From assembly GCA_964458035.1 (NCBI GenBank), contig CAYWFZ010000003.1, positions 8,297 through 72,296 of the forward strand: a DNA stretch of 64,000 nucleotides. Direction: 5' to 3'. This DNA comes from an uncultured Muribaculaceae bacterium. Its GTDB lineage: Bacteria; Bacillota_I; Bacilli_A; RF39; UBA660. The notes beneath the pieces were generated by a model, which saw only the letters and a program-made list of their open reading frames with translations, ran no database searches and was not told where the DNA came from. Below, in pieces: positions 662 through 50,167 of this stretch. Made by a program: the position numbers and the translations under genes. Position 1 is the first letter of the stretch. Each line of letters starts with the position of its first letter.

Positions 662-774
662 ACATTATAACATTTTATACAAGAAAATGACAACAAAAAA
701 TAAATATAAAAGGATATTTTTTATTTAACTAAGAACCTATAATGGTAAACTTTACAAAATATATATTAATTTTT

Positions 775-814
775 AAAGAAAAAAAGAATATCTAATAAAA
801 CATTAGATATTCTT
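775..814 (-). terminator. Rho-independent terminator of the giant surface-protein gene
   Basis: Perfect 11-13 bp inverted repeat AAGAATATCTA...TAGATATTCTT at 784-814, overlapping the stop codon and followed on the minus strand by a TTTTTCTTT run. Confidence 0.6.
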
Positions 815-8688: not shown

Positions 8689-8748
8689 ACTTCCACCTAT
8701 TATCATTCTAACACACTTTACTAATTAAAAAAAGAAGCAGCAAGCCTC

Positions 8749-9894
8749 TTATTTACTTTTTTTCAACATTGGTAATTCTAAATCATCAAGATTTTTAATA
8801 TCAGCATTTACCTTAATTCGTTTTTTTATTGCTTCTAGATCAAAATTAGATTCACAATTTAAATTTTTAACAGTACTTTCAATAGAAGTTATAATACCTC
8901 GAACATGATGATTATCATTAATAAATGCCTTGTCTTTATCTATTCTAACGCGATATTTTAAAACCTTTAATACAGCATCAAAGAACTCCACTTCATCATA
9001 CAATAGTGATCCTTCAAGCAATCTAAAGAACACATGAATTGGCATTTCATACAACTTATCTTGAATAGTCTTAGTAAATGAAATAGATTCAAAATCATAA
9101 TTATATAATTCATCAAAAGGAATATTATATAGAAGTTCTAAAACAGCGTCAGGGTCATAAAAATCCGTAACTACAAGAGTATATAAATATTGTAATTTTA
9201 AAGATCCATCTGTAGTAAGCTTTAATAATTTCTTTTTCGACTTTAACATACCTAAAACCAAATCGACAAATAGTTTCTCTTCGACATTCATTGGTTCAGT
9301 TTCTACTTTTTTTAATTTGTCCTCTAAAGCATCTTTTATTGATATAACAGATATAGCCTGAGTATACTCAAGAGGAGTTTCACATTTCTTAACTTTATGT
9401 TCTTTTTCTTTAGCAATATATTTTTTAAATATTTTATCAAAATTAACAAGTAGATAGACAATAACAATAAAAAGAACAATAGCTATTACCTTAAAAACTA
9501 GTGTCATTGGAACAATTAAAGAAACTCGTCCAATTATCGCATCTTTATTTACTGGTTCATCATCAATATTATTAACATCTCCCCTAGTAATAACTCTATC
9601 ATCATCTATACGAATAACTCGATGGGTAATAAAAGCATCATCACTCTTAAAAGTAATAATATCATCTACATTGTACTCATCATTTATTTTTACAACTATT
9701 ATATCATTTACTTCAATAGTACCAGACATACTACCACTAGCAACAATAAAATATGTATAACCAAATATATTTGCATAATCCTTATGCATAAATTTAGTAA
9801 TAACAACAGTATATAATGATAGAAAAACTAGTAAAGATAATATTAAATATATAAAATATTTAATCACCCTTTTTATTACTTTCATATTATCCAC
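8749..9894 (-). CDS. sipW: SipW-type (S26B) signal peptidase I with a ~230-aa C-terminal cytoplasmic extension
   Basis: Motifs SGSMSGTI, NDIIVVK, ITHRVI and TRGDVNN match the archaeal-type SipW catalytic core. An N-terminal TM and a second TM (VFKVIAIVLFIVIVYLLVNF) are followed by about 230 extra charged residues. Confidence 0.75.
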   Translation of the reverse strand: MDNMKVIKRVIKYFIYLILSLLVFLSLYTVVITKFMHKDYANIFGYTYFIVASGSMSGTIEVNDIIVVKINDEYNVDDIITFKSDDAFITHRVIRIDDDRVITRGDVNNIDDEPVNKDAIIGRVSLIVPMTLVFKVIAIVLFIVIVYLLVNFDKIFKKYIAKEKEHKVKKCETPLEYTQAISVISIKDALEDKLKKVETEPMNVEEKLFVDLVLGMLKSKKKLLKLTTDGSLKLQYLYTLVVTDFYDPDAVLELLYNIPFDELYNYDFESISFTKTIQDKLYEMPIHVFFRLLEGSLLYDEVEFFDAVLKVLKYRVRIDKDKAFINDNHHVRGIITSIESTVKNLNCESNFDLEAIKKRIKVNADIKNLDDLELPMLKKSK

Positions 9895-9951
9895 CTATTT
9901 TACTATTCATAGCAATTATAACATAAAACAACAAAAAAAGACTAGTATTTA

Positions 9952-11559
9952 CTAATCTTTATCTATTTTTTTAAAATCAATTATATATTTTATTTTCTCA
10001 ATTGATATATCGCTATTATTAATATTATTAACAAGATTAATAAAATCAATACTTTCTTCTAATCCAATAAGATTGTCTACTAGATCATCTTTACTTACAT
10101 TAATATTAAGTAATTTATACTTTTCAAATATAATATTATTTAAATCTTCATCACTTTGAAATTTGATTTTTGTAATAAAAGTATTATTAGGATTATTAAC
10201 AAAGTTGATTAATTTAAAATATTCCTTAGTATAATCTATATCTTTATCATCTAAGTCGATTTTTGGACACATCTTCTTAAAATAATCATAAAAAGAAGCA
10301 CAGACATATAATGCATCTCTTATAGTAGAAGTATCATCTAATCTTTTTAAAATAATATCATTAATTTTAGCTTCATCAAGTTCTCGATACAAGCCATCAA
10401 GTTTCTTTATTTGATCATTTAATTGAACTATAATTAAGTCTTTATTAACTTTCTTAGCAAATATAAATTTAGACTCACTTGCATATTGCTTAGCTAATTT
10501 AGCACGAACCTTTTCCTCTTGCCTAATTTCTTTTAGTTTAGCATCATACTGACCCTTATATGAATCTTTATTAGCATATCTTGATAAAACATCCTTAACT
10601 ATTCCTTTGTACTTATTATAATGATCTAATTCAACTACAACATCCTTTAATTCGCTAATTTCATCATAAAAATCTGACTTCTCTTTAGGAGATAAATCAT
10701 CAAATTCACGATCTATTAAGAATCTATTAAAGTTCTTGCGCACTTGAGGTGTATCCTCCAAATAATCATATATTGATAAAGTACCATCCAAGAATTTACT
10801 GCTAAGCAAGAAAATATCATTAATACGTTGCTTCTTTAGATCAGTAAGCATTGACTGATAGTACGATTTATAATTATCCTTATCTGTATTATTTTTCTTA
10901 AGTAACTCTTCATTACTTCTAATATAATAACTATCAAGTTCTTTTTTAAATTGCGAATATAAATTACGAATACATAATTTTAAATGAATTATAAAATTAG
11001 GACATTCCCAGTATATTTTATCAAATATATTTTTCATTGAATCCATAAAAGTATCCTTGTCTAAATTCGCAAAATATACTTCCATATACATATGCGTAAA
11101 CATAGAATAATTAAAATGTTCAGCTGTCAATTTTATTTCAGCACGATCAAACAAGTCAATAATCTTATCTATAAACTCGTTTACTCTTGTAAAATCTGAA
11201 ACATCAATATCATCGATATCATTAACTATATTATCAAAATTAAGTTTATTATATATATCATTAAATTCATTGTTATAGTCAAATATGATTCTATAATTTA
11301 ATATTCTATCCTTCAAATCAATATAATTAGCCGTTGAATCAGCTGGTATTAAAGCATTAACTCTAGATTCCATTTCATTATAAATTCTATCTCTTAAATC
11401 TTTGTATTTCTCTAGTTTTCCCTCAACAAAAGCATTTCTACTATTAACAGCATTAATATGAAATGTTTTCATCATTTTCTTTGTTCCAGTTGTAGACTCT
11501 AACTGAAACTCTTCAATATATTTCTTATCTTCCTCAAACTGAGTTAGGTATTGATTCAT
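9952..11559 (-). CDS. Hypothetical 535-aa K/D/E/N-rich, probably cytoplasmic protein
   Basis: Long ORF with no TM or signal sequence. Its ATG overlaps the stop of the upstream 46-aa ORF (ATGA). Confidence 0.6.
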   Translation of the reverse strand: MNQYLTQFEEDKKYIEEFQLESTTGTKKMMKTFHINAVNSRNAFVEGKLEKYKDLRDRIYNEMESRVNALIPADSTANYIDLKDRILNYRIIFDYNNEFNDIYNKLNFDNIVNDIDDIDVSDFTRVNEFIDKIIDLFDRAEIKLTAEHFNYSMFTHMYMEVYFANLDKDTFMDSMKNIFDKIYWECPNFIIHLKLCIRNLYSQFKKELDSYYIRSNEELLKKNNTDKDNYKSYYQSMLTDLKKQRINDIFLLSSKFLDGTLSIYDYLEDTPQVRKNFNRFLIDREFDDLSPKEKSDFYDEISELKDVVVELDHYNKYKGIVKDVLSRYANKDSYKGQYDAKLKEIRQEEKVRAKLAKQYASESKFIFAKKVNKDLIIVQLNDQIKKLDGLYRELDEAKINDIILKRLDDTSTIRDALYVCASFYDYFKKMCPKIDLDDKDIDYTKEYFKLINFVNNPNNTFITKIKFQSDEDLNNIIFEKYKLLNINVSKDDLVDNLIGLEESIDFINLVNNINNSDISIEKIKYIIDFKKIDKD

Positions 11560-11696
11560 TTTTCTTCCTCTTCTATAGTCAGAATACTATTATTAAGATA
11601 CTTAATATGTTCGTCTACTTTTCCATAGAATTCCATCAATTCATCATCTGTTAATTTACTTAAATTAAGAAGTGGGGTTTCAATTTTCTCTTCCAT
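11556..11696 (-). CDS. Small acidic protein (46 aa), translationally coupled to the 535-aa gene
   Basis: ATG at 11696 is preceded by AAGAGGT at 6-nt spacing. Its TGA overlaps the ATG of the downstream gene. Hand-translated (MEEKIETPLLNLSKLTDDELMEFYGKVDEHIKYLNNSILTIEEEEK); it is below the ORF-track length cutoff. Confidence 0.45.
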   Translation of the reverse strand: MEEKIETPLLNLSKLTDDELMEFYGKVDEHIKYLNNSILTIEEEEK

Positions 11697-11778
11697 ATTA
11701 ACCTCTTTCTAGAATTACATGCTAAATATATTATATCATAATTATTTTCATTTATTTCTATAATTTGACATATATTGT

Positions 11779-11801
11779 AAAAAAAAGGCTTTTAAAGCCT
11801 T
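11779..11801 (-). terminator. Rho-independent terminator after the 353-aa TasA-like gene
   Basis: AAGGCT/AGCCTT stem (palindrome ggcttttaaagcc) followed on the minus strand by a run of about 6-8 T. Confidence 0.55.
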
Positions 11802-11819
11802 TATACTATATCATCTATT

Positions 11820-12881
11820 CTATGGTGTATCAGTTGCACCAGACTTACTATTTGAACTAAATTGTAAGTCAAAGTTTATTTGTCCACCAGCTGCGAAGTT
11901 TTCACAGTCAACATCTTGACCTTCAACCCACATATAGATTCTTATCTTAGTAATTCCTTTTTTCAAATCTATAAATTCTTGATAAGCAGCTGCAGGAATA
12001 CCAGATTCTGGAGTAGCAATATAGTTAGTTGGAGCAGCAGTAGGAGCATCCTTTGTTACTTCTTGGAAATAAGCATTATCAGTACTATTTAAAGCAACTG
12101 CAGTAGTAATTGGAGCTTTAAGTCCATAATATCCAAGTCTTGCAGCGCCATTTAAACTAGTAGTCTTTCCATAAAGAGCTGCATTTGTTATACCAGTAGG
12201 TGTATGAACATCATAATTTGGTTCCCAGAAAATTGGTGTAGCACCAGCATTTGCTAAATTTTGAATAGTACCTGTTGCACTACCAGCAGCAACGTTACCT
12301 TCATCAATGAATGCAAGTCTTGCAGCTCTTTGAATACCAGTATCTGCATCTCCGTCTCCACCTTTAACTGAAGCCTTATCTGTTAAATAGATTTTAGTAT
12401 CTTCTTGAACTTGGAAGAATAAGTCAAATGCTATAAAATGTCCATCTTGTGATTTTGTTTCAGTTGATTTAGAAGCAGTTAATTCATATGCACCAGATGT
12501 TTCATTAACTACAACTTCACCTAAGTACATATCCATTTCTCCACTTGTTGATAGCTTTCCAACAGTTGATACAGGAGCTAATCTACCAGTAGAACTAGGC
12601 AATTGGTTCTTGTTTCCTGGGTATACTGTATTAGTACCAGTAATTGTATCTACTATATCTTGATTAGTTACTATAGCTTTCCAATTGACTCCATCAACTG
12701 ATATTTGTAGACCATTTGCAGCAGCAACATTAACATTAATTGTACTTACTGTAACAGTTTTATTTGCAGTAAACCATGCATAAGATGTTGTAGCTAGTAA
12801 ACCACCAGTTAAAAGAAGCATCAAAACAGCTAATAACAATTTTCTTTGCTTTTTTCTACGTTTAACTTTATTTTGTTTCAT
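11820..12881 (-). CDS. TasA/camelysin-like secreted protein with a SipW-cognate-type signal peptide
   Basis: N-terminal basic region and hydrophobic core, then TTSYAWFTANK, matching the (G)GT[FW]A[YA]F[SN]D motif of TasA/CalY. The C-terminal IYMWVEGQDVDCENFAAGGQINFDLQF is shared with two neighbouring paralogs. Confidence 0.65.
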   Translation of the reverse strand: MKQNKVKRRKKQRKLLLAVLMLLLTGGLLATTSYAWFTANKTVTVSTINVNVAAANGLQISVDGVNWKAIVTNQDIVDTITGTNTVYPGNKNQLPSSTGRLAPVSTVGKLSTSGEMDMYLGEVVVNETSGAYELTASKSTETKSQDGHFIAFDLFFQVQEDTKIYLTDKASVKGGDGDADTGIQRAARLAFIDEGNVAAGSATGTIQNLANAGATPIFWEPNYDVHTPTGITNAALYGKTTSLNGAARLGYYGLKAPITTAVALNSTDNAYFQEVTKDAPTAAPTNYIATPESGIPAAAYQEFIDLKKGITKIRIYMWVEGQDVDCENFAAGGQINFDLQFSSNSKSGATDTP

Positions 12882-12897
12882 TATATTTCTCTCCTTT

Positions 12898-13602
12898 TTA
12901 TTTTCTTACTAATCTTTCTTCAGTTATATCCATATGCATCTTAATGCCTCCACCTATCAAGTCATTATTACACTCTGGATCGTCACCTTCAATCCAAATT
13001 ACTACAGTAAAATGGTCTTTATCTCCTGGTAAAAATTCTTTACGTTCCTCAAGTACAGCTATATCAGTAGAATAAAATTTAACCGTATCTTTTTCTGCCT
13101 CACCTGTTCTACTACTTGGTTTAGCATAAATAGTCTTTTCGCCATTATGATATATCATAACTCTTATTGATTCATCAAGATTTCGAATTGTATCATCAAT
13201 ATCAATTTCATACCAATAATTGATTGGATTTTCACCTGCATGAACTAAATAAAAGCTATAAGCAACATAATTAGTACCATTATGGGCACCATCTGCCTCA
13301 GTATCAATGTCTTCATTTATCCATTTAACTGAGATATTATCCATGTATTCAGCAGCACTTGCAGACAAACTCCTACTCTTGTTTTCTAAAGATCCATCTT
13401 CCGTTAAAAATATACTACTTTTTAGCATATCTTTATCAACCGATATCGAAAAATTACTAGTATTGTACACTACATACAATACCGAATACGATACAGAAAA
13501 CAACAATAGTAAAAGCAGTAATATAACTTTCGAAATTCTTGAAAATAACTTTTTTCTATGAATTTTATCCGCAGTTGTAGAAACACTATAATCTCTTTTC
13601 AT
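12898..13602 (-). CDS. TasA/camelysin-like paralog (234 aa) with N-terminal signal anchor
   Basis: C-terminus VIWIEGDDPECNNDLIGGGIKMHMDI aligns with the C-terminus of the 353-aa protein. N-terminal hydrophobic segment. Confidence 0.55.
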   Translation of the reverse strand: MKRDYSVSTTADKIHRKKLFSRISKVILLLLLLLFSVSYSVLYVVYNTSNFSISVDKDMLKSSIFLTEDGSLENKSRSLSASAAEYMDNISVKWINEDIDTEADGAHNGTNYVAYSFYLVHAGENPINYWYEIDIDDTIRNLDESIRVMIYHNGEKTIYAKPSSRTGEAEKDTVKFYSTDIAVLEERKEFLPGDKDHFTVVIWIEGDDPECNNDLIGGGIKMHMDITEERLVRK

Positions 13603-13806
13603 GTAATCACCATCTTTTTTATTGTTTTACTAGGGGGACAATAGTATCTACACTACCACTATCATAATTATATTTTAGTCCCTAATTAATATCAACAATA
13701 TTTGTCAATAAATGTCGAACTATACACACTATGTTTACACAAAAACAATACATCAAGAAGAATAGTACGTTTGACTAATAATTGAACCCATGATAATATA
13801 ATAATA

Positions 13807-14403
13807 GTGATACTTATGAATACTAAAAATATACTAAGAATAGGACTTATTATTGTTGCTATTTTTCTTGCTAGTTTTTTATTGCAAGACACATTTGCAA
13901 AGTATAGAAAAAGAGTAAATAATAACGTTGATATAAACCTTGCCAATTGGAATATCTTACTTAACGGAGAAAGTATAGCTGGTAAAGATACAATATCGAG
14001 TAAAATAATTCCGGTATTTGAAAAAAACGACTATATTGCAGAAAACGTTTTAGCACCTGGAGTAAAAGGATACTACGATATCGAAATAAACGCCAGTGAA
14101 GTTGATACATCTTTTTCTTATGTTTTTACAACCAAAGTAAGTGATGAAGAAAAATATCCTGATATTATCGCTTTTGGATATACAATAGATCCAGATAACA
14201 ATTCTGAAATAATTGAGTATACTGGTGGAAGTATAACTGGTTCTATAGTTCACAATACACCATCCACTAAAATAAGAATTTATATTGAGTGGGACGATTC
14301 AGAAACAAATAAAATGACAAATGCAGAAGATACTGCCCTTGCCATTAATAATAATGAACTAACGATGAATGCCGAATTCAAATTTGAACAAATTAAGGAA
14401 TAA
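13807..14403 (+). CDS. Small secreted protein, possible third TasA-like paralog (198 aa)
   Basis: Signal peptide followed by QDTFAKY (TasA-like cleavage motif). The C-terminal IYIEWDDSETNK...NAEFKFEQI resembles the conserved C-terminal motif of the two upstream paralogs. Divergently transcribed. Confidence 0.5.
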   Translation: MILMNTKNILRIGLIIVAIFLASFLLQDTFAKYRKRVNNNVDINLANWNILLNGESIAGKDTISSKIIPVFEKNDYIAENVLAPGVKGYYDIEINASEVDTSFSYVFTTKVSDEEKYPDIIAFGYTIDPDNNSEIIEYTGGSITGSIVHNTPSTKIRIYIEWDDSETNKMTNAEDTALAINNNELTMNAEFKFEQIKE

Positions 14404-14412
14404 TATATTCCT
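14387..14412 (+). terminator. Rho-independent terminator
   Basis: AAGGAAT/ATTCCTT stem overlapping the stop codon, followed by TTTTTTTT. Confidence 0.65.
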
Positions 14413-14433
14413 TTTTTTTCATTTTTAAATTCA

Positions 14434-14462
14434 TTGACAAATAATTAGAATGCCCCTATACT
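14434..14462 (+). promoter_or_regulatory. Sigma-A type promoter (TTGACA-17-TATACT)
   Basis: Consensus -35 TTGACA at 14434-14439 and -10 TATACT at 14457-14462, with a 17-bp spacer, 30 nt upstream of the ORF start. Confidence 0.6.
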
Positions 14463-14493
14463 ATATCACAAACAAAAAAGAATAAGTGATTGC

Positions 14494-15408
14494 ATGAGTA
14501 AATTTGAATTTCTAAAAGCTATTCCTATAAATCAGTTAGTTTCTTTATATAATGTAACAACTGATGAAGTACTTAAAGAAAATATTAACAGCGTCTTAAA
14601 AAGAAGTAAGCCATATATGGCTGAGTGCTATAGCAGTGATCGTCACTCATACATTGAAGAATCTATTACACCAGCATATTTAAAATTAATTGATAATCTA
14701 TTGCTCAAAGACTTAGGTTTTTATAATGAGCTAGTATGTCTTAGTCGTGGAAATAATCGAGGAGCAAATGCCAGCTATAACTTTTTAGATAAGCCCATGT
14801 TAATGTACTATTATCCTGGAGTAAAAGAGAGATTATTCAAATATGACATTAGATTTATGAAACAATTCCATAATATTTTCGTCTTTGGTTCAAGATATTA
14901 CGGTGGAGAAAAAGATGAGAGTCTAGTTCAAGAAATAAAAAGCATCCCCGAAGTTATAGAGGCTAAAGAAAAAACAGAATACTTTAAATATTTAGAAGAA
15001 TTTTTCAATAGTGAAGAAAACAGATATTATTATGAAGGATCATATAACAGTTTCATGTACATAAAAGATTATCTATATAAAATTCTAAGCAATCACAATA
15101 TGGAAATGTCTGATTTATTAAAAGAAACACAAGAAAAATCCCAAATTGTTTTAGAGTACTTACAAGAAATCTGTAAATATTTATACGATCTTAAAGATAA
15201 TATTGGAGAATGTAGAATCTCCGCATGTAATAACAGATCTATAACTCAGATACTAAAAGGAAGAGAAGACTCTGGACTTAACAAACAACAACTAGCAGAA
15301 CTTCTAGCTTTTGGAATAACAAAAGACGAATTAAAAAAACAAGATTTTAAAGCTTTAGATAGATTAATTTATATACCTAGAAATAAACCGCGTAAAACTT
15401 TATTTTAA
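14494..15408 (+). CDS. Hypothetical protein (304 aa)
   Basis: Long ORF behind a near-consensus promoter. No motif recognised. Confidence 0.5.
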   Translation: MSKFEFLKAIPINQLVSLYNVTTDEVLKENINSVLKRSKPYMAECYSSDRHSYIEESITPAYLKLIDNLLLKDLGFYNELVCLSRGNNRGANASYNFLDKPMLMYYYPGVKERLFKYDIRFMKQFHNIFVFGSRYYGGEKDESLVQEIKSIPEVIEAKEKTEYFKYLEEFFNSEENRYYYEGSYNSFMYIKDYLYKILSNHNMEMSDLLKETQEKSQIVLEYLQEICKYLYDLKDNIGECRISACNNRSITQILKGREDSGLNKQQLAELLAFGITKDELKKQDFKALDRLIYIPRNKPRKTLF

Positions 15409-15409
15409 T

Positions 15410-15688
15410 TTAGTTACATAATAGAAAGATAGCATCAATATGAAGAATTTTACCTGGAAGATAAAAATATTCATCTCGATCAAGTAATTCATTACTTATT
15501 TCAGGTCTATAATCATCATTTTCCTTAGATAAAACTAAATCACTTATTAATGCATCTGCATAAAGTCTGACATCAGTTCCTTTTAAATAAGCAATATTAT
15601 CTTTGATATCCATAACTATAAAAACAACATCATTGTCATGACTATTTCTAGTAACTATCGAACCTACTTGTATTTCCATAAACTTCAC
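15410..15688 (-). CDS. Small protein (92 aa) resembling the N-terminal domain of sporulation protease YabG; either truncated or a stand-alone domain
   Basis: The pattern VGSIVTRNS..DVVF.....AYLKG.DVRLYAD...SDLV...YFYLPGKILHID matches my recollection of the YabG N-terminus. The ORF terminates before any peptidase domain. Position after ksgA is consistent with yabG synteny. Confidence 0.4.
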   Translation of the reverse strand: MKFMEIQVGSIVTRNSHDNDVVFIVMDIKDNIAYLKGTDVRLYADALISDLVLSKENDDYRPEISNELLDRDEYFYLPGKILHIDAIFLLCN

Positions 15689-15721
15689 CTACCTTATATT
15701 ATGACAAAATAAAAAAAGTGT

Positions 15722-16753
15722 TTAACACTTTTCTATAAATCTTGCGGGTAGATAGTCATCTGCAAATGCAATTGATATATGATTAAGTGAAGCAAAATTT
15801 AGTGCTTTTTCATCATCATAATTTGAAAAATATTCTTCTTTACTAACATTTTCATAATAAACTTTATCCAATACTTGATTATCAGAAAAACTATCTTTAT
15901 ATCCATAAAATATATCTTGAATAAGCATTTGCACTTCTTCATCATTGATATTAATTCTATAAATATCTTTGTATTCTAATAATTCCTTTATTTTTCTTCC
16001 AAGTTCTGGATACAAAGGATATCTAAAAAAATACATATAACTAGCACCAAATGGTCCTCTAAACATCTCAAGAGCCTCAATTATCTCTTCTCTGCTTAAA
16101 CTATTTTCTTCTCTTCCTTTAAATTTTTCTAAATTCCAAGAATCAACAATTCTATACTTATACTTATCGGAATACTTATCAAACAAATCATACATTCTAT
16201 GATTATACATATACTTTAAGCTTAAAAGACCCTTACTTATATCAGCATTCTTATCAACAACATGGTAAAAATAAAGTGGTTCATTTAACTTAATAAGTTC
16301 TTGTGATGAACAATAATTCAAAAATTCTGGTGCTTTCATCCTTTTATTTGGTTTTTGATAAAAGTAAACAAATGCATATACTTCCCCAACTGATATATCC
16401 GAAAAAGAAAGAATTAACTTATTTTTTACATCCATAAGTAATTCTTTTAATGAATTATATTCGTAAACTCCCTTATAGGATTCCCACGAATGCTCGAACC
16501 AAATGAACTTGCCATTATTTTGATAAACAATAAAAGTATGTGTTTGATAATGTTCAGACTCATCAGATAAGCTAACAAAGTAAGATTGTGTATCTACTCC
16601 CAAATCAGAAAACAATTTTCTCTCTAATTCAACTTGCTCCCAACAATTTCCTTCCTTAGATTCTATAACTTCCTTCGCATCTTGAATAAAAGTATCATCA
16701 TCAATCCATCTATAATTAATTTTTTCTAATTCCCGCATTACTGATTCATTCAT
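15722..16753 (-). CDS. Hypothetical protein (343 aa) with an N-terminal Cys/His (GNCWEQ ... HTF) transglutaminase/papain-like-looking motif
   Basis: ORF only. The motif assignment is tentative. Confidence 0.45.
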   Translation of the reverse strand: MNESVMRELEKINYRWIDDDTFIQDAKEVIESKEGNCWEQVELERKLFSDLGVDTQSYFVSLSDESEHYQTHTFIVYQNNGKFIWFEHSWESYKGVYEYNSLKELLMDVKNKLILSFSDISVGEVYAFVYFYQKPNKRMKAPEFLNYCSSQELIKLNEPLYFYHVVDKNADISKGLLSLKYMYNHRMYDLFDKYSDKYKYRIVDSWNLEKFKGREENSLSREEIIEALEMFRGPFGASYMYFFRYPLYPELGRKIKELLEYKDIYRININDEEVQMLIQDIFYGYKDSFSDNQVLDKVYYENVSKEEYFSNYDDEKALNFASLNHISIAFADDYLPARFIEKC

Positions 16754-30610: not shown

Positions 30611-32197
30611 CTAATCTATTTTCAATTTATCATTACCAAATATATCCTCTGCAAGTGTAACAGAGTTACTATCAGTATTAATAAATTCACTCTCATCCAT
30701 AATATCATATTTTTTTGTTTTATCATAACTTTGCATAAAATTTTTCCAATCATCATCAGAAATAAAAATAAACTTATATGACAAATTATTAATTGAATTA
30801 AATTTATTTTCTATCTCATATAGTTTGGAATTTCCAACTATTTTAATACTTTCTGATTTAGTAAGGAATATTCCATAATTATCACTTACCACTTGTGGAA
30901 CAGACTTACTAGTTATATTTAAAAGTTCAGTAGTATTATCAGCTTTTAATGAATCATTAAATTTTTTCCAATAATCAGTAAATCGTATTTTATAATCCTT
31001 ATTACAATTAACAAATGTATTATTTATTCTAACATTAACAAAGTCATCACTAATCTTATAAATTTGTTGGTTTCCATCAGAATTAAGCATACTATTTACG
31101 TCAATTTTGGTGTCAACTCCGATTATTTCCCGGGAAATAATTTGATTTATTTCTCTATTTGATATTTGATTTTCTTCATCATTAATAAAAGAAATAAGCT
31201 CAAGTTCTAAAAGTAAAAAGCCATTACTGCTATAGTTCAATTTACTATATAACTGATTTAACACCTCAATAATCTTTTTTAGTTGATTAAAAGCAGCAGT
31301 TGAAATATTTTTCTTTTTCATATTGATTGCTTTATCAATAAAATTATCCAAAATTTTATCAATAAATATTTTAATATCTATTCCAGATTCTTTAATATTT
31401 CTTAAAGTTGCAACTAGACCATCAATATCATTTTTAATAATAAAAGAATAAAGCATATCAAGTTCTGCAGTTGTTACGGTTCCAAAATTTGACTTTATAA
31501 TATCCATGCTTATATTGTCTGAGACCTTAGACAATTGATCTAATATACTAAGTGCATCTCTCATACATCCATCGCTTAAAAAAGCAACTTCATTTAGTGC
31601 ATCTTCGTCATAATTAATTTTTTCTAATTCGCATATTCTCTTCAAATTATCATAGATAAGATTTCTATCAATACGTTGAAAATCAAACCTTTGACAACGT
31701 GATAAAACAGTAATTGGAACCTTTTGTATATCCGTAGTAGCTAGAATAAAAACAACGTTTGAAGGAGGCTCTTCTAAAGTTTTAAGAAAAGCATTCCAAG
31801 CTTGATTAGATAACATATGAACCTCATCAATAATATATACTTTATATAAACTATTAGTTGGTGCAATGCCTATATTATCTACTATTTCCCTAATATCATC
31901 TACACTATTATTACTTGCAGCATCCATTTCAATTACATCAGGAGATGTATTAAAATTAATACAGTTGTCGCACACGCCACAAGGAAGTCCATCCTTAACA
32001 TTCAAGCAATTTAAAGTGCGAGCGAATATCTTTGCAGTACTTGTTTTACCAGTTCCACGAGGTCCCGTAAACATATATGCGTGAGCAATTTTATTGTTAA
32101 TAATCGAATTCTTTAATATATTTTTTATATGATCTTGTCCTACAAGTTCGTCAAAGTTAGTAGGTCTATATTTTCTATATAAAACTTTATAATCCAT
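30611..32197 (-). CDS. dnaX: DNA polymerase III tau/gamma subunit
   Basis: YRPTNFDELVGQ, Walker A GPRGTGKTS, zinc module CGVCDNC and SRC motif. Confidence 0.95.
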   Translation of the reverse strand: MDYKVLYRKYRPTNFDELVGQDHIKNILKNSIINNKIAHAYMFTGPRGTGKTSTAKIFARTLNCLNVKDGLPCGVCDNCINFNTSPDVIEMDAASNNSVDDIREIVDNIGIAPTNSLYKVYIIDEVHMLSNQAWNAFLKTLEEPPSNVVFILATTDIQKVPITVLSRCQRFDFQRIDRNLIYDNLKRICELEKINYDEDALNEVAFLSDGCMRDALSILDQLSKVSDNISMDIIKSNFGTVTTAELDMLYSFIIKNDIDGLVATLRNIKESGIDIKIFIDKILDNFIDKAINMKKKNISTAAFNQLKKIIEVLNQLYSKLNYSSNGFLLLELELISFINDEENQISNREINQIISREIIGVDTKIDVNSMLNSDGNQQIYKISDDFVNVRINNTFVNCNKDYKIRFTDYWKKFNDSLKADNTTELLNITSKSVPQVVSDNYGIFLTKSESIKIVGNSKLYEIENKFNSINNLSYKFIFISDDDWKNFMQSYDKTKKYDIMDESEFINTDSNSVTLAEDIFGNDKLKID

Positions 32198-32234: not shown

Positions 32235-32687
32235 TTATCTTTTACATTTATCTTTAAAAAATGTTGATAACTGTTCTTTGTAAATATGTTGTTGAAAACT
32301 ATCAACACACTCAATCTTTTCAAAACAAGTTTTATTATATTCTTTTTTATAATCAGGTTTATCAATAAGATAAAAAACAGTTCTAATTCTTGCCTGTTTA
32401 ATAATTTCTTTACACATACTGCAAGGCTCAAGGGTTACATATAAATCGCATTCATTTAAACGCCAATCTTTAAGTTTTTTCGTCGCTTTTCTAATAGCAA
32501 TTATTTCTGCATGTCCCATAATATCGTTACATCTATTGCGTTTATTATATCCTCTTCCTACAATTTTATTGTTGAAAACTACTATTGCTCCTACAGGTAC
32601 ATCATTATTTATATAAGCTTTTTTAGATAATTTTATAATTTCATCAATATAATTGTTCATAAGATTCTCCTCATAAAAAAAGCACAC
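32235..32687 (-). CDS. tadA: tRNA-specific adenosine deaminase
   Basis: HAEIIAIR and PCSMC zinc-binding motifs, 150 aa. Confidence 0.9.
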   Translation of the reverse strand: MCFFYEENLMNNYIDEIIKLSKKAYINNDVPVGAIVVFNNKIVGRGYNKRNRCNDIMGHAEIIAIRKATKKLKDWRLNECDLYVTLEPCSMCKEIIKQARIRTVFYLIDKPDYKKEYNKTCFEKIECVDSFQQHIYKEQLSTFFKDKCKR

Positions 32688-32753
32688 ACAAATAGAGGTT
32701 AATATGGCTGCTATCTTCCGATCCTGACCAGGGTTATAACATATTTGTTGTGC
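32682..32753 (-). ncRNA. ffs: Small SRP RNA (4.5S/ffs-like hairpin)
   Basis: The minus strand reads GCACAACAAATATGTTATAACCCTGGTCAGGATCGGAAGATAGCAGCCATATTAACCTCTATTTGTGTGTGC. Its core CCTGGTCAGG-TCGGAAG-AGCAGCC matches SRP RNA domain IV (CCAGGUCAGGUCCGGAAGGAAGCAGCC), and the ends pair with each other. It is followed by a T7 run and then directly by the tadA RBS. Confidence 0.6.
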
Positions 32754-32958
32754 AAATTAATTATAACATATTTTTTATATAAATAAAGTATTTTTTACCT
32801 TGCAAATATTTATTTTTTTTAATTCCATTTTCCTTTTTCACTAATTTTTGTTTTTTGTTCTATTTTTATATGCAAATATCGATAATTTACTAAAAAAGTC
32901 ATCACTTTTTTAATATTTGTAAAAAAATTATATCAAATATTTAAATTTATTAATTTGA

Positions 32959-33612
32959 ATGTTCCACGTGAAACATAACAGAAAGTAATTAATTTTTTTC
33001 AATAAGAAGAAATGCATCATATGTTTCACGTGAAACTATATATTTAGTAATAATTATAAAAGTGAACTTTAATGTTCCACGTGGAACATTACGTATAAAG
33101 TTATAGCATATTTCAGTAAACACCGATATAATCATATAATATTTCATGCATAGTTTTATAATAAGGAGCTTATTAATAGCAAACAATATTGCTTTTCAAT
33201 GTTTCACGTGGAACATTATTATTTAAAATATAGTTATTTTGTAAAATATAAATAGAAATTTCATTATGTTCCACGTGGAACTATGCATTTAATGAACAAT
33301 TAATAACAACAAACGATAATTTCAATGTTTCACGTGGAACATTGCTCTTAAAATATAATTATTCTATAAAATATAGGTAAAAATTTTATTATGTTTCACG
33401 TGAAACTATGCATTTAATGAACAATTAATAATATCAAATGATGATTTTAATGTTTCACGTGGAACATCATGTATAATTTACAACTATAATTAAATAAATT
33501 TGTAATAAAGATAAGACTGTTTAAAGTAAATAATTGATGAAGAAAACATCAATATATATCAATGTTTCACGTGAAACTATAAAAAAGAAAAACAATGTTC
33601 CACGTGAAACAT
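32959..33612. repeat. parS: Array of 10 parS (ParB-binding centromere) sites, 16-bp core TGTT(C/T)CACGTG(A/G)AAC(A/T)
   Basis: Copies start at 32959, 33021, 33072, 33199, 33267, 33326, 33391, 33450, 33562 and 33595. All are within two mismatches (none affecting the CACGTG core) of the B. subtilis parS consensus TGTTCCACGTGAAACA or its reverse complement. Spacing is irregular, 33-127 bp. Confidence 0.85.
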
Positions 33613-33710
33613 ATAAAAATCATAAAGTTATTAATATAATATAAAAATCAAATTTGTAATATTTGTTATTATCATTATATTAATATGAAAGAGTATAAAA
33701 AAAGAAAACA

Positions 33711-36167
33711 CTATTCCGCATTTTCTTCTTCAACTATATCTAACGATTCATCAACCTTATCAACCACACTTATAGTAGATACAAATTGATTTTCTTTTAA
33801 ATTAATTAGCTTAACTCCTTGAGTAACACGTCCTAATTGAGAAATTTGTTCAATAGGTAACCTAATAAGCATTCCAGACTCTGTTATAATCATTAAATCA
33901 GAATCATTGTTAACAACTTTATGTGCAACCAATGCTCCATTTTTTTCAGTAATACTTAAGGCTTTTACACCTTTACTACCTCGCTTAGTCATTCTATACT
34001 CATTTACAAAAGTTTTCTTACCATATCCGTTCTTAGTAACAACTAAAATATTATCCTCTGGTTTTCCAACTTCCATACCTGTACAATAACCATCACCATC
34101 TAAGTTAATTCCTCTAACACCTGAAGCAGTTCTTCCCATAGGTCTTATTTCATTCTCATCAAACACAACCATACGTCCAGATGTACTAGCTAATATTATC
34201 TTAGAAGCTCCATCAGTTAACTTAACATCAAGTAGTTCATCATTTTCTCTCAAACTAATTGCGATTTTTCCGCTTGCTCTAATATTTTCAAATTCATCAA
34301 CCAAAGTACGTTTAACTATTCCATTTTTAGTTGCAAATGTTAAATATTTACCAGCAGACTCCTTATTATATGAAACAATTGAATTAATTTTCTCATCTTT
34401 TTCAATTTGAAGTAAATTAATTACAGGTAATCCCTTAGCTTGTCTAGAATATTCAGGAATTTCATAACCCTTTATCCTATATACTTTACCTTTATTTGTA
34501 AAGAAAGTTACATAATCATGCGTAGAACAATTAATTAAATGTTTAACATAATCTTCTTCATTTGTAGACATCCCCTTAACTCCAACTCCACCTCTATGTT
34601 GAGATTTAAAAGTATCAGATACACATCTCTTAATATATCCTTTATCAGTAAGGCTTATTATTATATTTTCTTCAGGAATTAATGATTCATCATCAATAAA
34701 GTCGACAGCTGTCATATCTATATATGTACGTCTCTCATCACCATATTTTTCCTTAATTTCAAGTAATTCTTCTTTAATAATGTTTAAAACTAATTGATCA
34801 TCAGCTAATATTGCCTTATATTCTTCTATTTTCTTTAATAATTCATCCAATTCAGCAAGAATCTTATCTTTTTCAAGAGCAGTAAGTCTTCTTAAACGCA
34901 TCTCAAGTATTGCTTCAGTTTGAATATCAGTTAGTCCAAATCTATCCATTAATGTTTGTTTTGCTTGTTCATCACTTCGAGAATTTCTAATTATTTGAAC
35001 AACATCATCAATATTTTCAAGAGCAATCTTATAACCATTTAAAATATGAACTCTCTCTTCAGCTTTCCCTAAATCAAATTTAGTACGCCTAATAATTATT
35101 TCCTTTTGATATTCGATATATTTAGAAATAATTTCCTTAAGTCCCATTGTTCTTGGTTTTTGTTGATCTAACATAAGTAAATTAATACTGAAATTAGTTT
35201 GTAAAGCTGTTTGTTTATATAAATTATTTAAAACTACATTAGCATTAGCTTCTTTTTTAAGAGTAATTACAATTTTTACACCATTTTCAAGGTTTGTTTC
35301 TTCATGTAAATCAGCTATACCATCAAGTAATTTATCACGAACTAACTCAGCTATACGTTGTTGAAAAAGTTTCTTATTAACTTGGTAAGGTAATTCAGTA
35401 ATAACAATCAATTGATGACCATTATGTTCTTCAATTGCAACTTTACCACGTATTGTTATTGTTCCTTTACCTGTTTCATAAGCTCTTCTAATACCTGAAT
35501 TACCTAATATTACAGCTCCAGTAGGAAAGTCTGGTCCTTTTACATATTCCATTAATTCTTCAGTAGTTATATCATGATTGTCGATATAAGCAACACATCC
35601 ATCAATAGTTTCTCCTAAATTATGAGGAGGAATATTAGTTGCCATACCTACGGCTATTCCCACAGTACCATTTACTAGTATATTAGGGAATCTACAAGGA
35701 AGAACAGTTGGTTCAGTTGTTGTGTCATCAAAGTTTGGTACAAAATCTACTGTGTCTTTCTTAATATCTCTTAATAATTCTAAAGATAATTTTGAAAGTC
35801 TTGCTTCTGTATAACGCATTGCAGCTGCGCCATCACCATCCATAGAACCAAAATTACCATGTCCTTCAATCAAAACATTTCTAATTGAGAAAGGTTGTGC
35901 TAAACGAACCATAGCATCGTAAATTGAAGAATCTCCATGAGGGTGATAATTACCCATAACCTCTCCAACCGTTTTAGCACACTTTCTAAAAGGTTTATCA
36001 GATGTGTAGCCATTCTCATACATAGAATATAGAATTCGTCTGTGAACGGGCTTTAAACCATCTCTAAGGTCAGGTAGAGCACGTGCAACTATTACACTCA
36101 TTGAATAATCAAGAAAAGATTCCTTAATTTCTTCAACTATATTTCTTTTTACAATATTTCCATCCAT
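33711..36167 (-). CDS. gyrA: DNA gyrase subunit A
   Basis: [16 protein letters not shown], active-site region and C-terminal beta-pinwheel, 818 aa. Confidence 0.97.
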
Positions 36168-39287: not shown

Positions 39288-39746
39288 TTATGCTCCATAG
39301 CTCCTTTTTTTCTTTAAAAAATGATCTAGTTTCATTGATTTAAATAATTGGTTATTAATTATATTCAAACTAATAGATAATTCTACAAAAACCCCATTAT
39401 TAAAAGTAATTACTGTAACATTCTTTAGGGCATTATAATAAACCTTATCAACATTCATCATATTTATCCAAGAAACTGTCTTTAATCTTGGAGAGGACGT
39501 TGGAAAAAAGATTAATCTATTAGAACCACTTATAATTATTGGAGTTTTATATTTTGATCCAGTAATAATTTCTGAACTTTTTAACCTTCCCATAAAAGTA
39601 CTTCCATATCTCAAACAATTTCTCTTAATAATATTATTTGGACTATCATTTACAACAAACATATCTTTATCATCATAAACCAAAGAAGTATTATTTCCAC
39701 AAGGCAATATCGCTAATGTTTTTTTGCGTATTATATATTTATCCAT
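39288..39746 (-). CDS. comK: ComK-family competence transcription factor homolog
   Basis: Aligns by eye with B. subtilis ComK. CLRYGSTFMGRLK matches CRFFGSSYAGRK. KTPIIISGSNRLIFFPTSSP matches KPPIMVDPSNQIFLFPTLSS. VSWINMMNV matches CGWISHVHV. TFNNGVFVELSIS matches TFSNGKTMELPIS. Confidence 0.7.
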   Translation of the reverse strand: MDKYIIRKKTLAILPCGNNTSLVYDDKDMFVVNDSPNNIIKRNCLRYGSTFMGRLKSSEIITGSKYKTPIIISGSNRLIFFPTSSPRLKTVSWINMMNVDKVYYNALKNVTVITFNNGVFVELSISLNIINNQLFKSMKLDHFLKKKRSYGA

Positions 39747-41107: not shown

Positions 41108-42469
41108 TTAATTTGAAATTTTTACTTTAATCTCTTTAATTTCATCTTTTAATTCTTCATTCTTTTTATATTCTTCATCAATCTTATCACAAGCATGTAT
41201 TACTGTAGCATGATCTCTGTTAAATTCTAAACCAATTCTCTCAATTGTTTCTTCGGTCGTCATCTTACAAAGATACATCGCAACTTGCCTAGCTTTATTA
41301 ATATTAGCTGTCCTTTTCTTACTTTTCAGATTTTCAACAGTTAAATCATAGAACTCAGCAACTGCTTTTTGAATTTTTGCTATATTATTTGTTATATATA
41401 GAGAATTTCCAATATAATCTTTCAAGTTTTCTTGAGCAAATTCTAAATTAATCTCTTTAGGAGAATACATTGCTGTTACTGCATAAAGTCGATTGATTGT
41501 TCCCTCAAGATGCCGAACATCGCTTTCACAGTTGTTTGCTATAAACTCTAAAACTTCTGGCTTTATAAGTGAGGATACTTCCGTTCCAGCAATTTTATTC
41601 TTTATTATTTTTAACCTTAGTTCGTAATCTGGAGGAGTAATATTAACAGTAATTCCCCAATTAAATCGTGTTTTTAATCGATCTTCTAATACTTTCAAAT
41701 CATCAGGTGATCTATCACTACTAATTATGATTTGTTTTTGTCCCTGATGTAGGAAGTTAAAAGTATTAAAGAACTCATCTTGCGTTTTAGCAGCACCGCC
41801 TAGGAATTGAATATCATCAATTATTAATACGTCCACATTCCTATATTTATCTTTAAATTTTTGCTCTAATTCGTACTTTTCTTCATCTTTTTTATATAAA
41901 TTAGTGAAATCCGATATAAAAGTATCACTTGTAACATACAAAACAGATTTATTTGAGTTTTCTTTAATATAATTTCCAATCGCGTGCATTAAATGCGTTT
42001 TACCAAGACCACTTTTTCCATATATAAATAAAGGATTATAAACTTTTCCGGGTTGTTCTGCAACAGATAAACCAACCATAGCAGCAAATCTATTAGTCTC
42101 CCCTATTACAAAGTTATCAAACGTATAATTTGGATTTAAATTTGAATTATCTTCTTTAAACTTTGGTAAATCCACAGCTTCTTCAATAACGACTTTTTCA
42201 CTATTTTCAGAATATCTATTTAAGTCTTCCTCTATGACTACCTCAAAAGAATATGAAATATCAGAACACTGTTCAATAGTCTCCTCTAAGAGGTCTGTAT
42301 AATGTTCTTTTATAAAATCCCTTGAATAAGAATTAGAAACTTTAATTATCAAGGTTGAATCATCAATTTTTACTAATTCTGAGTCATTAAACCATATATT
42401 AAAAGAAACACTACTAGTATGTGATTTTAAATAATCTAAACATTTATTCCATAACTCTTCTCTGTCCAT
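41108..42469 (-). CDS. dnaA: Chromosomal replication initiator DnaA
   Basis: AAA+ Walker A GKSGLGKTHL, box VII, and C-terminal HTH (...RQVAMYLCK...DHATVIHA). The ORF-track start at 42478 is a GTG. The ATG at 42469 (MDREELWNKCL) is preceded by AGGGTGG. Confidence 0.96.
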   Translation of the reverse strand: MDREELWNKCLDYLKSHTSSVSFNIWFNDSELVKIDDSTLIIKVSNSYSRDFIKEHYTDLLEETIEQCSDISYSFEVVIEEDLNRYSENSEKVVIEEAVDLPKFKEDNSNLNPNYTFDNFVIGETNRFAAMVGLSVAEQPGKVYNPLFIYGKSGLGKTHLMHAIGNYIKENSNKSVLYVTSDTFISDFTNLYKKDEEKYELEQKFKDKYRNVDVLIIDDIQFLGGAAKTQDEFFNTFNFLHQGQKQIIISSDRSPDDLKVLEDRLKTRFNWGITVNITPPDYELRLKIIKNKIAGTEVSSLIKPEVLEFIANNCESDVRHLEGTINRLYAVTAMYSPKEINLEFAQENLKDYIGNSLYITNNIAKIQKAVAEFYDLTVENLKSKKRTANINKARQVAMYLCKMTTEETIERIGLEFNRDHATVIHACDKIDEEYKKNEELKDEIKEIKVKISN

Positions 42470-42478
42470 AATAACCAC

Positions 42479-42892
42479 CCTGTTGATCTATGATGCCATA
42501 GTTTCATTAACTACTTAAATTTTATAACTTTTTAGTTGAAAAAGTAAAGAGTAATATTATAATTTTAGTTATTACCACAATTTTCAACAAAGTTTTCAAC
42601 TCTTAATGTACTATAATATAGTATTTTGTCGTACTTTTCAACCTTTTCAACAAATTAATAAAAAAAGTTTTCATTTATAGTGAAAAGTTTTAAGATATAA
42701 ACGTTGAAATAGTTGAAAAGCCAAATTAAGCTGTTGAAAACGTTAAAGTTATGAACAAAGATTAAAAAAACATAGTTTTCTTTAAATATCCTTAATTTTA
42801 TTGACTTAATCAATTTAATATAATATAATAACCTTGCTTTGAGATTGCATCAGTTTATTAATCTGAGCAAAAAGAACCGGAGGTGGACATTT
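42479..42892. other. oriC: Candidate oriC: dnaA-rpmH intergenic region with 8 copies of the octamer TTTTCAAC/GTTGAAAA in both orientations (about 42534-42745), then an AT-rich stretch and the rpmH promoter
   Basis: Copies occur as ttaGTTGAAAAag, aaTTTTCAACAaagTTTTCAACtc, acTTTTCAACcTTTTCAACAaa, acGTTGAAATAGTTGAAAAGcc and ctGTTGAAAACg. I found no TTATCCACA. Position is between the divergent dnaA and rpmH-rnpA genes. Confidence 0.6.
42801..42829 (+). promoter_or_regulatory. rpmH promoter (TTGACT-17-TATAAT)
   Basis: -35 TTGACT at 42801-42806 and -10 TATAAT at 42824-42829, 63 nt upstream of the rpmH ATG. Confidence 0.6.
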
Positions 42893-43015
42893 ATGAAAAG
42901 AACTTATCAACCAAATAATCGTAAGAAAGCAAAAAAACATGGTTTCTTTGCACGTAAAAATACAAAAATTCTAAAAACTAGAAGAGCAAAAGGACGCAAA
43001 GTGCTATGCAAATAA
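42893..43015 (+). CDS. rpmH: 50S ribosomal protein L34
   Basis: Hand-translated [40 protein letters not shown], with GGAGGTGG RBS. Below the ORF-track cutoff. Confidence 0.9.
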
Positions 43016-43058
43016 AGCCACAAAGTGGCTTTTTCTTATATAAGTAGGAGGTATTTTA

Positions 43059-49033: not shown

Positions 49034-50167
49034 ATGAAAATGGAAGCACAAATAAGATTAATTAATATTGATAGTATTATTCCAAATAGATTTCAACCTA
49101 GACTTCAATTTGATGAATCAGCGCTTGCTGAACTTGCTGCATCTATTAAAGAACATGGAATAATTCAACCTTTGGTCTTAAGAAGAGTAGGAGACAAATT
49201 TGAGATAATTGCTGGTGAAAGAAGATTTAAAGCTGCAGAACTAGCAGGATTAACGAGTGTACCTGCAATAATATCTGATTTAGACGATAATGAATCGGCT
49301 GAAGTTGCAATAATTGAAAATACTCACAGAAGAAATCTATCACCTATTGAAGAAGCAAAATCTTATAAAAAATTACTTGATAGAAAATATGTTACCCAAG
49401 ACCAGTTAGCTGCAAGACTAGGAACAAGTCAATCAAATGTAGCAAATAAAATAAGACTACTTTCACTTGATGAAACTGTTCAAAGTGCATTATTAAAAGA
49501 ACAAATTAGTGAAAGACACGCCAGAAGTTTATTACGTGTAACAGATAAATTTAAACAGGTTGATTTCTTAAATAAAACAATAAACGAAAAATGGCCAGTA
49601 AGAAAACTTGATGAAGAAATAGATAAACTACTTGGAACATACAAAAAAGATTCATCAACAACAGGAGCAATTAATGCTAACAGCAGAATAGATGTAAATG
49701 TTGATGATATAGTTAATAATTCAACAGATATTTTATTAGATAGTGATTATACTCCGGTTAATTATGAATATACTTCTAAAATAAAAGATGATACTAAAAA
49801 AAGAGATTCATTATTCTTTAATAATTTAGAAAATGAATCTGCTAATATGGATCCAACTCTTAATTTTGGTTTTAACCCTTTTAAAAATAGTGTCACAACT
49901 GAAAATGCTGTGGAGAGAGACTATGAATTATTAGAACTTGATGAAGATGAAGATGAAGTAGATGATACCGAAGAAACTGCAAACACAAAACAAGATGTAA
50001 AAGAAGTTGTAGTTGAAGAAGAGTATAAAACTATGGATGATGTAATAATGGGGATTAAAAAAATTATTAAAAAAGCAAAAGAAGCAGAAGTTCCCATTGA
50101 ATTAGAAGAATTTAGTTTTGACAAATTCTATCAATTCATTATTAGAATATATAATGATACAAAATAA
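49034..50167 (+). CDS. parB: ParB/Spo0J-family partition protein (CTPase, parS-binding) with a long acidic, low-complexity C-terminal region
   Basis: ParB boxes IQPLVLRR and IIAGERRFKAAELAG, followed by an HTH. The C-terminal half is D/E/N rich. No adjacent parA or noc. Confidence 0.85.
   Translation: MKMEAQIRLINIDSIIPNRFQPRLQFDESALAELAASIKEHGIIQPLVLRRVGDKFEIIAGERRFKAAELAGLTSVPAIISDLDDNESAEVAIIENTHRRNLSPIEEAKSYKKLLDRKYVTQDQLAARLGTSQSNVANKIRLLSLDETVQSALLKEQISERHARSLLRVTDKFKQVDFLNKTINEKWPVRKLDEEIDKLLGTYKKDSSTTGAINANSRIDVNVDDIVNNSTDILLDSDYTPVNYEYTSKIKDDTKKRDSLFFNNLENESANMDPTLNFGFNPFKNSVTTENAVERDYELLELDEDEDEVDDTEETANTKQDVKEVVVEEEYKTMDDVIMGIKKIIKKAKEAEVPIELEEFSFDKFYQFIIRIYNDTK

Follow-up and report, generated by a model that had tools for sequence, protein, structure and literature searches.

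The stretch of DNA analysed here, 64 kb long and referred to below as the window, carries ten parS-type palindromes within about 650 bp and close to dnaA. This raises the question of what so compact a cluster does and which protein reads it: the ParB-family protein encoded in the same window, a ParB encoded elsewhere, or a DNA-binding protein of another kind. The array and its sites are as follows, all ten individual sites being taken from a mismatch search.

32960..33611, whole array of ten parS 16-mers (site search and shuffles)
32960..32975, parS 1, TGTTCCACGTGAAACA, perfect
33022..33037, parS 2, TGTTTCACGTGAAACT, A16 to T
33073..33088, parS 3, TGTTCCACGTGGAACA, fully symmetric
33200..33215, parS 4, TGTTTCACGTGGAACA, perfect on the minus strand
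33267..33282, parS 5, TGTTCCACGTGGAACT
33326..33341, parS 6, TGTTTCACGTGGAACA
33392..33407, parS 7, TGTTTCACGTGAAACT
33451..33466, parS 8, TGTTTCACGTGGAACA
33563..33578, parS 9, TGTTTCACGTGAAACT
33596..33611, parS 10, TGTTCCACGTGAAACA, perfect
33194..33467, tandem duplication of a 125 bp unit, 2.2 copies at 87% identity with two parS per unit (TRF)

Each of the ten 16-mers in 32960-33611 lies within one mismatch of the degenerate sequence TGTTNCACGTGNAACA in a search of the 64 kb window; six match it perfectly and the other four differ at one base, each time an A to T change at position 16. Taking for each site the strand that scores better against TGTTCCACGTGAAACA, there are five with no mismatch, one with a single mismatch and four with two, and the CACGTG core is intact in all ten. 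The parS consensus is given as TGTTNCACGTGAAACA and the S. pneumoniae variant as AGTTTCACGTGAAACT (PMC7022226), and as matches to the TGTTNCACGTGAAACA palindrome all ten array sites are within two mismatches, with five exact matches. In dinucleotide-shuffled sequence, matches to TGTTNCACGTGNAACA average 0.30 and never exceed 3, whereas 20 strand-matches are observed. The preliminary description had counted ten sites in about 650 bp, all within two mismatches of the Bacillus-type parS and including a perfectly symmetric variant, and these points hold: the mismatch search finds exactly ten, and the symmetric TGTTCCACGTGGAACA is present at 33073. Its statement that no other CACGTG match exists stands as far as parS is concerned, with no further match in the window outside the array even at three mismatches or fewer, but not for the bare hexamer, which also occurs at 36080 and 47682, in neither case in a parS context.

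Successive sites are spaced by 62, 51, 127, 67, 59, 66, 59, 112 and 33 bp, a density of about 15 parS per kb. The spacers are unique sequence except within 33194-33467, where the duplicated 125 bp unit records growth of the array through tandem duplication.

The surroundings of the array comprise the following features.

32765..33710, non-coding gap of 946 bp between gyrA and ffs that hosts the array (ORF and composition analysis)
33711..36167, minus strand, gyrA, its 3' end 100 bp from the array (Pfam)
32667..32764, minus strand, ffs (small SRP RNA), its 5' end 196 bp from the array (Rfam)
32235..32663, minus strand, tadA (Pfam and relatives)
30611..32197, minus strand, dnaX (Pfam/ORF calls)
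41108..42478, minus strand, dnaA (Pfam/ORF calls)

The gap is 20.1% GC, falling to 15.4% when the parS sites are masked, as compared with 28.1% for the window, and it contains no credible small ORF (the longest is 65 aa) and no intrinsic terminator, in agreement with the gene-free, very AT-rich segment between ffs/tadA and the 3' end of gyrA that had been described. Promoter-like sites are not enriched in it (10 found, 13.9 expected), no DnaA boxes are present in or near the array, and no Rfam family besides ffs and no tRNA was found. The tadA start is probably the ATG at 32663, which gives a product of 142 aa as in the relatives. On the minus strand the gene order is dnaX, tadA, ffs, array, gyrA, gyrB, recF, a ComK-like gene, dnaN and dnaA, and on the plus strand it is rnpA, yidC, jag, mnmE, mnmG, rsmG and a 377 aa ParB-family gene, followed by a convergent PBP gene. 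From the end of the array it is 7.5 kb to the dnaA stop and 8.9 kb to the dnaA start, close to the 9 kb originally stated. The minimum of the cumulative GC skew falls at about 42-43 kb, such that the skew switch (the oriC region) is just upstream of dnaA, and the array is on the leading strand of the left arm, within the origin domain expected of chromosomal parS sites.

We note several other aspects of this region. The dnaA-rnpA intergenic region (42479-43058), at the GC-skew switch, contains no match to TTATCCACA at one mismatch or fewer, and the DnaA boxes of this lineage may be off-consensus or located elsewhere. A ComK-family gene (39288-39746, minus strand) without an NCBIfam match lies between dnaN and recF, and is in the same place in all of the relatives examined (L135, L137-L140); in B. 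subtilis this position is occupied by yaaA. The block at 119-16753 contains a 2630 aa ORF (814-8706, locally up to 36% GC) together with eight ORFs of 180-535 aa, those eight without a significant Pfam match. SpoIIR and SpoIID are encoded in the window, and homologues of the ParB-like protein and of GyrA come from uncultured 'Bacilli' and 'Erysipelotrichales' genomes from gut and rumen metagenomes.

Clusters of chromosomal parS sites are textbook knowledge, and the extreme rarity that the preliminary description attached to this density proves overstated. A GTDB pattern scan finds three or more parS within about 165 bp in at least 120 species of many phyla, including Acidobacteriota, Bacteroidota, Pseudomonadota, Actinomycetota, Planctomycetota, Verrucomicrobiota, Myxococcota, CPR (candidate-phyla-radiation) lineages and Clostridia. 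An origin-region marker (parB, mnmG, rsmG, dnaA, dnaN, gyrB and others) is present within 8 kb at 90 of 120 such triple-parS loci among the matches listed. When sites are chained by gaps of up to 200 bp, the window with its ten sites ranks third among the matches listed, behind L103 with 15 sites in 517 bp and a Haliangium genome with 11 in about 500 bp. M. xanthus has 22 parS in 3 kb, a cluster that is bound by ParB in vitro (PMC3899335). Genomes are reported to carry 1-20 parS sites (PMC10197239), with parS clusters typically spanning 5-40 kb in most bacteria (PMC8357415). The array is thus not singular: it belongs to a known class, in which it is unusually dense, and its density lies towards the top of a range seen in many phyla and in part already described.

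Comparison of the gyrA-downstream region among related genomes, which had been suggested as a check, is informative about how the array is maintained. Seventeen syntenic relatives with GyrA 60-94% identical have 3-15 parS in the same neighbourhood and unrelated spacers. At least 13 GTDB clade genomes (GyrA 60-69% identical) were found by pattern alone, using a scan for three parS with 30-60 bp gaps in one genome per GTDB species, and have arrays beside gyrA, tadA or dnaX; four closer relatives were collected through GyrA homologues. Between gyrA and ffs there are four parS in L138 (GyrA 89%), nine in L139 (84%) and seven in L140 (73%), and the contig of the relative with 94% GyrA identity ends within the array. 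Relatives keep the gyrB-gyrA-array-ffs-tadA-dnaX order strictly as far out as about 60% GyrA identity, and metagenome loci at 48-71% identity show this neighbourhood again; relatives also have arrays between tadA and dnaX, and in frame within dnaX.

The relatives' arrays are often perfect tandem repeats of 36-75 bp, and their periods differ from one species to the next: 35-37 bp in L103 (its 15 parS occupying 517 bp in all), 44-45 bp in L020 and L084, 55 bp in L037 (nine parS), 62-64 bp in L041, L049, L056 and L016, and 72-75 bp in L060 and L023, all of them carrying one invariant 16-mer. In relatives whose GyrA is 89-94% identical, the 16-mers are the only parts of the arrays that recur, and the spacers defy alignment. 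Since the 16-mers persist while the spacers are unrelated, selection acts on the 16-mer and on the presence of multiple copies, and the recurrence of independent expansions with different periods likewise points to selection on multiplicity. The array is clearly maintained by selection while the repeat scaffold turns over via tandem duplication. A fixed spacing or helical phasing of the sites is ruled out, the periods spanning 36 to about 110 bp.

Three further observations concern these relatives. In L099, the dnaX gene (505-2235, minus strand) contains three parS in frame in a linker, at 991, 1060 and 1120, which translate as VSRET or VPRET and leave an unbroken ORF of 576 aa. Contigs stop inside or just past the parS arrays at L137:8452-8599 and L103:4571-5117, and it seems that short-read assembly fails at tandem parS arrays in the origin region, which matters for the quality of metagenome-assembled genomes. 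One 2,328 bp contig with eight parS (L017, CAZJQA010000106.1) is labelled as belonging to a Muribaculaceae bin and has 22% GC together with the TadA and DnaX of this clade, and is probably a binning contaminant.

Which protein reads the array is a separate matter, for which two further features are needed.

49034..50167, plus strand, Noc-type ParB-family gene, 377 aa, the only one in the window (Pfam, structure-sequence match and alignments)
31124..31139, perfect Noc-binding site (NBS) TATTTCCCGGGAAATA within dnaX, in frame, codons IISREII (motif search)

The 49034-50167 product has ParB_N and HTH_ParB domains and the GERR motif of CTP binding, and it matches the solved structure of Noc (7NG0, 196 bits) better than that of Spo0J (6SDK, 163 bits). 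Four residues set specificity, R173-T179-A184-G201 in ParB and Q-K-K-R in Noc (Jalal et al., PMC7383237), and the printed alignments give Q133-K139-S144-R161 in this protein, a Noc-type set. In a Caulobacter scaffold, NBS recognition uses Q173 for adenine 1 and R201 for cytosine 6, and R173 is invariable in parS-specific variants (PMC7383237). The preliminary description had named this protein as the ParB that would bind the array, an assignment that is not supported in view of the better match to Noc, the Q-K-S-R residues and a cognate NBS 1.8 kb away; the protein probably is not a parS binder.

The same protein departs from Noc in other respects. Nucleoid occlusion by Noc needs an N-terminal membrane-targeting amphipathic helix (PMC8429893), and the 49034-50167 product has no N-terminal extension, its ParB_N domain beginning at residue 6; it therefore lacks the membrane-targeting helix. 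A PNRFQPR motif stands at offset 16 in 114 of 120 homologues among the matches listed. With 269.9 bits it falls below the cut-off of 315 of the NCBIfam nucleoid_noc model (TIGR04285) and passes the generic parB_part domain model. An acidic linker and a C-terminal extension of about 175 residues with conserved motifs (FFNNLENE...NFGFNPF and a terminal EEFxFDxxYQFIIRI) complete the protein, and there is no significant PDB sequence match for the C-terminal 46 residues or these motifs. By its sequence the protein is a Noc-type paralogue, yet not a standard Noc.

Neither a ParA nor a second ParB was found in the window by tblastn, a Walker-A scan and Pfam searches of nearly all ORFs of at least 99 aa (the main exception being 814-8706); the tblastn queries were a Soj sequence and that of Spo0J as given in 6SDK, and window ORFs without a Pfam match were read by eye and do not look ParB-like. 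More specifically, the window has no KGGxGK[ST] motif and no tblastn match to Soj, and hence no candidate ParA partner, and the 64 kb encode no ParB of the parS type, which would have R173 and a small residue at 201; the only ParB-family gene is Q-K-S-R. Three relatives likewise have neither a parS-type ParB nor a ParA up to 10 kb from the Noc-type gene, and no parS-type ParB was seen at about 135 clade loci. As neither the window nor the origin regions examined in relatives encode a ParA, partition is probably ParA-independent here, as described for S. pneumoniae. S. aureus is a precedent in which noc lies apart from an orphan parB and parA is absent.

The NBS at 31124-31139 lies 1.8 kb from the array, and base composition predicts 1.7e-5 occurrences per window, and a dnaX-internal NBS is present at the identical offset (1058 nt, same codon) in L138, L139 and L140. 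The array 16-mers themselves are five mismatches from TATTTCCCGGGAAATA and are not NBS, and no NBS remnants are present in the spacers of the window array, the best match having five mismatches, as expected from shuffles. In three relatives every repeat unit combines one parS with one perfect NBS, with eight units of 64 bp in L056 (L056:3541-4052), seven of 62 bp in L016 (L016:1-434) and five of about 73 bp in L023 (L023:1-400). A metagenome scan for parS followed by an NBS within 5-35 bp gives at least 120 loci (L141-L260 listed), and among the matches listed 118 of 120 are low-GC (18.5-35%) and 114 of 120 have gyrA, tadA or dnaX homologues; these 114 therefore belong to the gyrA-tadA-dnaX neighbourhood of one and the same broad clade. 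We found no report of parS and NBS alternating within one repeat unit in the literature searched.

Among 142 sites in clade DNA, 117 are pure parS, 24 are pure NBS, none is half-and-half and one is a hybrid. The parS-to-NBS distance ranges from 18 to 120 bp with a wide peak at 22-38 bp, and flanking DNA of the clade outside the hub has about one NBS and about one parS per 16-19 kb, such that neither is strictly confined to the hub. Because the two classes stay separate, two distinct readers are suggested, and the economical inference is that these load side by side rather than on a rigid composite site.

A plausible scenario, which we favour with moderate confidence, is that the array is a genuine parS centromere hub at which a canonical ParB, encoded outside the window, is loaded, and that the local Noc-type paralogue reads the NBS. 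It builds on what is observed directly in the identity of the sites, their statistical excess, location and conservation, in the behaviour of the tandem repeats and in the specificity residues of the local protein, and it would entail ParB binding, clamp loading, SMC recruitment and a distal parB; for the binder itself, a canonical ParB of the R173/G201 type is most likely. The nucleation and SMC-loading hub envisaged in the preliminary description is thus retained as the best reading of canonical, origin-proximal and selected parS sites, and the ParB it named as the binder is given up. On established ParB biochemistry, ParB dimers would bind each 16-mer, bind CTP and close into sliding clamps, and the closed clamps would escape onto the flanking DNA. 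With ten sites at intervals of 33-127 bp, loading at one locus would be several times faster, and one large partition complex would form about 8 kb from oriC and could recruit SMC-ScpAB at a single entry point, in keeping with evidence that widely separated parS lead to SMC collisions (PMC8357415). The array would grow and turn over by tandem duplication of parS-bearing units, and the Noc-type paralogue would read NBS that in many relatives are packed into the same hub.

The foremost alternative is that the Noc-type protein is the only ParB-family clamp of the clade, loads at both parS and NBS, and took over the centromere after loss of soj-spo0J. Its gene is the only one of the family in the window and in the origin regions of the relatives, and it occupies the noc slot after rsmG, where soj-spo0J are missing. 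The alternation of parS and NBS in one unit (L056, L016 and L023) and their separation by no more than 35 bp in at least 118 low-GC metagenome loci would suit a single reader, and the ParB mutational library includes dual-specificity variants (PMC7383237). However, Q-K-x-R is present in 119 of 121 family members among the matches listed, its Q173 and R201 equivalents are the residues that read the NBS in the Caulobacter scaffold while parS-specific variants keep R173, and a dual reader would be expected to tolerate mixed sites, yet none of the 142 sites is half parS and half NBS. We consider this unlikely, and think it equally doubtful that the clade has no canonical ParB at all and that a helix-less, Noc-derived CTPase clamp with a new conserved C-terminal region builds the centromere at a composite parS and NBS hub downstream of gyrA; if true, either Noc would have taken over the centromere or the protein would be an intermediate between ParB and Noc that has survived.

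Explanations that dispense with a ParB-type reader altogether, or with the function of most of the sites, fare less well than these. The array could be a neutral or selfish minisatellite derived from one ancestral parS and the extra copies functionless, and the tandem-duplication dynamics are indeed clear, with copy numbers from 3 to 15; but the window spacers have mostly diverged beyond recognition while ten cores and their flanks are kept within one mismatch, and independent expansions with different periods recur in the clade and in other phyla, which makes this improbable. Slightly more improbable still is that the palindromes are operators for an unrelated protein recognising CACGTG, such as a transcription factor for ffs/tadA or gyrA. 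The array does lie upstream of ffs, and no parS-type ParB is encoded in the window, but all 16 positions match parS, well beyond the core, the same 16-mer arrays adjoin parB, rsmG or mnmG in many phyla, and arrays that in relatives lie between tadA and dnaX or in frame within dnaX are a poor fit to a promoter-bound operator, as is the lack of excess of promoter-like sites in the gap; the alternative CACGTG-binding regulator proposed at the outset accordingly gains no support. As for an origin as a mobile-element remnant or decoy, for instance from a phi29-like phage or a plasmid carrying parS to hijack the host ParB, triple parS is present in 12 IMG/VR contigs, among them that of the phi29-like phage L005 with its nine sites. 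No phage or plasmid genes flank the array, however, and with the strict synteny of gyrB through dnaX across relatives we reject this origin as very improbable. L005 merits note on its own account, as a contig of 12,060 bp in which five of the nine parS are within 150 bp of one end, and which encodes a DNA polymerase (phrog_1907, phi29-like and presumably protein-primed), a terminase, an upper collar connector and a major head protein; it is reminiscent of phi29, which reportedly uses Spo0J sites.

Several known systems provide a context for the parS hub favoured here. The M. xanthus cluster, whose 22 sites span about 3 kb and lie 4 kb upstream of parA (PMC3899335), resembles the window in having many canonical parS in a short, origin-proximal non-coding stretch, although at 7 sites per kb it is about twofold less dense than the 15 per kb of the window; it is near parA, whereas the window array is not beside parAB and has no parA or parS-type parB within 64 kb, and the window, unlike M. 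xanthus, is from a low-GC Firmicute with an array associated with NBS. The parS-Spo0J(ParB)-SMC systems of B. subtilis and S. pneumoniae (PMC7022226) share the same 16 bp consensus and origin-proximal sites, and the A16 to T sites of the window match the pneumococcal AGTTTCACGTGAAACT type, the absence of ParA also being pneumococcus-like; eight of the ten B. subtilis sites are spread over the origin domain and S. pneumoniae has four sites, as compared with ten in 0.65 kb.

The plasmid centromere sopC of F, with 12 direct repeats of 43 bp each containing a 16 bp inverted repeat bound by SopB (PMC3177203), has a tandem-palindrome architecture that is reproduced exactly in relatives with 15 units of 36 bp, nine of 55 bp or eight of 64 bp and that the window array resembles in part. 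The window array differs from sopC in being partly degenerate, with only a 125 bp unit in 2.2 copies and two sites per unit, and in being chromosomal (gyrA-ffs), with a chromosomal parS sequence and no adjoining par operon. With the Noc-NBS system of Bacillus and Staphylococcus (PMC7383237, PMC8429893) the window shares a protein with the equivalents of Q173, K179 and R201, the GERR motif and the position after rsmG, together with a perfect NBS; it differs in that the array sites are parS and that the protein is without the N-terminal helix and below the NCBIfam Noc cut-off. In the relatives, moreover, NBS are clustered in tandem with parS, whereas in the Noc-NBS system they are only scattered along the chromosome.

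Tandem, sopC-like parS arrays are widespread on the chromosomes of many phyla and evolve by repeated expansion, and they constitute natural experiments on how site number and spacing affect the loading of ParB and the entry of SMC. No parAB operon is coupled to the hub in this clade, and the only nearby ParB-family gene is of the Noc type without a membrane helix. Two paralogous CTP-dependent clamps appear to be loaded at one locus, an arrangement that bears on how Noc diverged from ParB.
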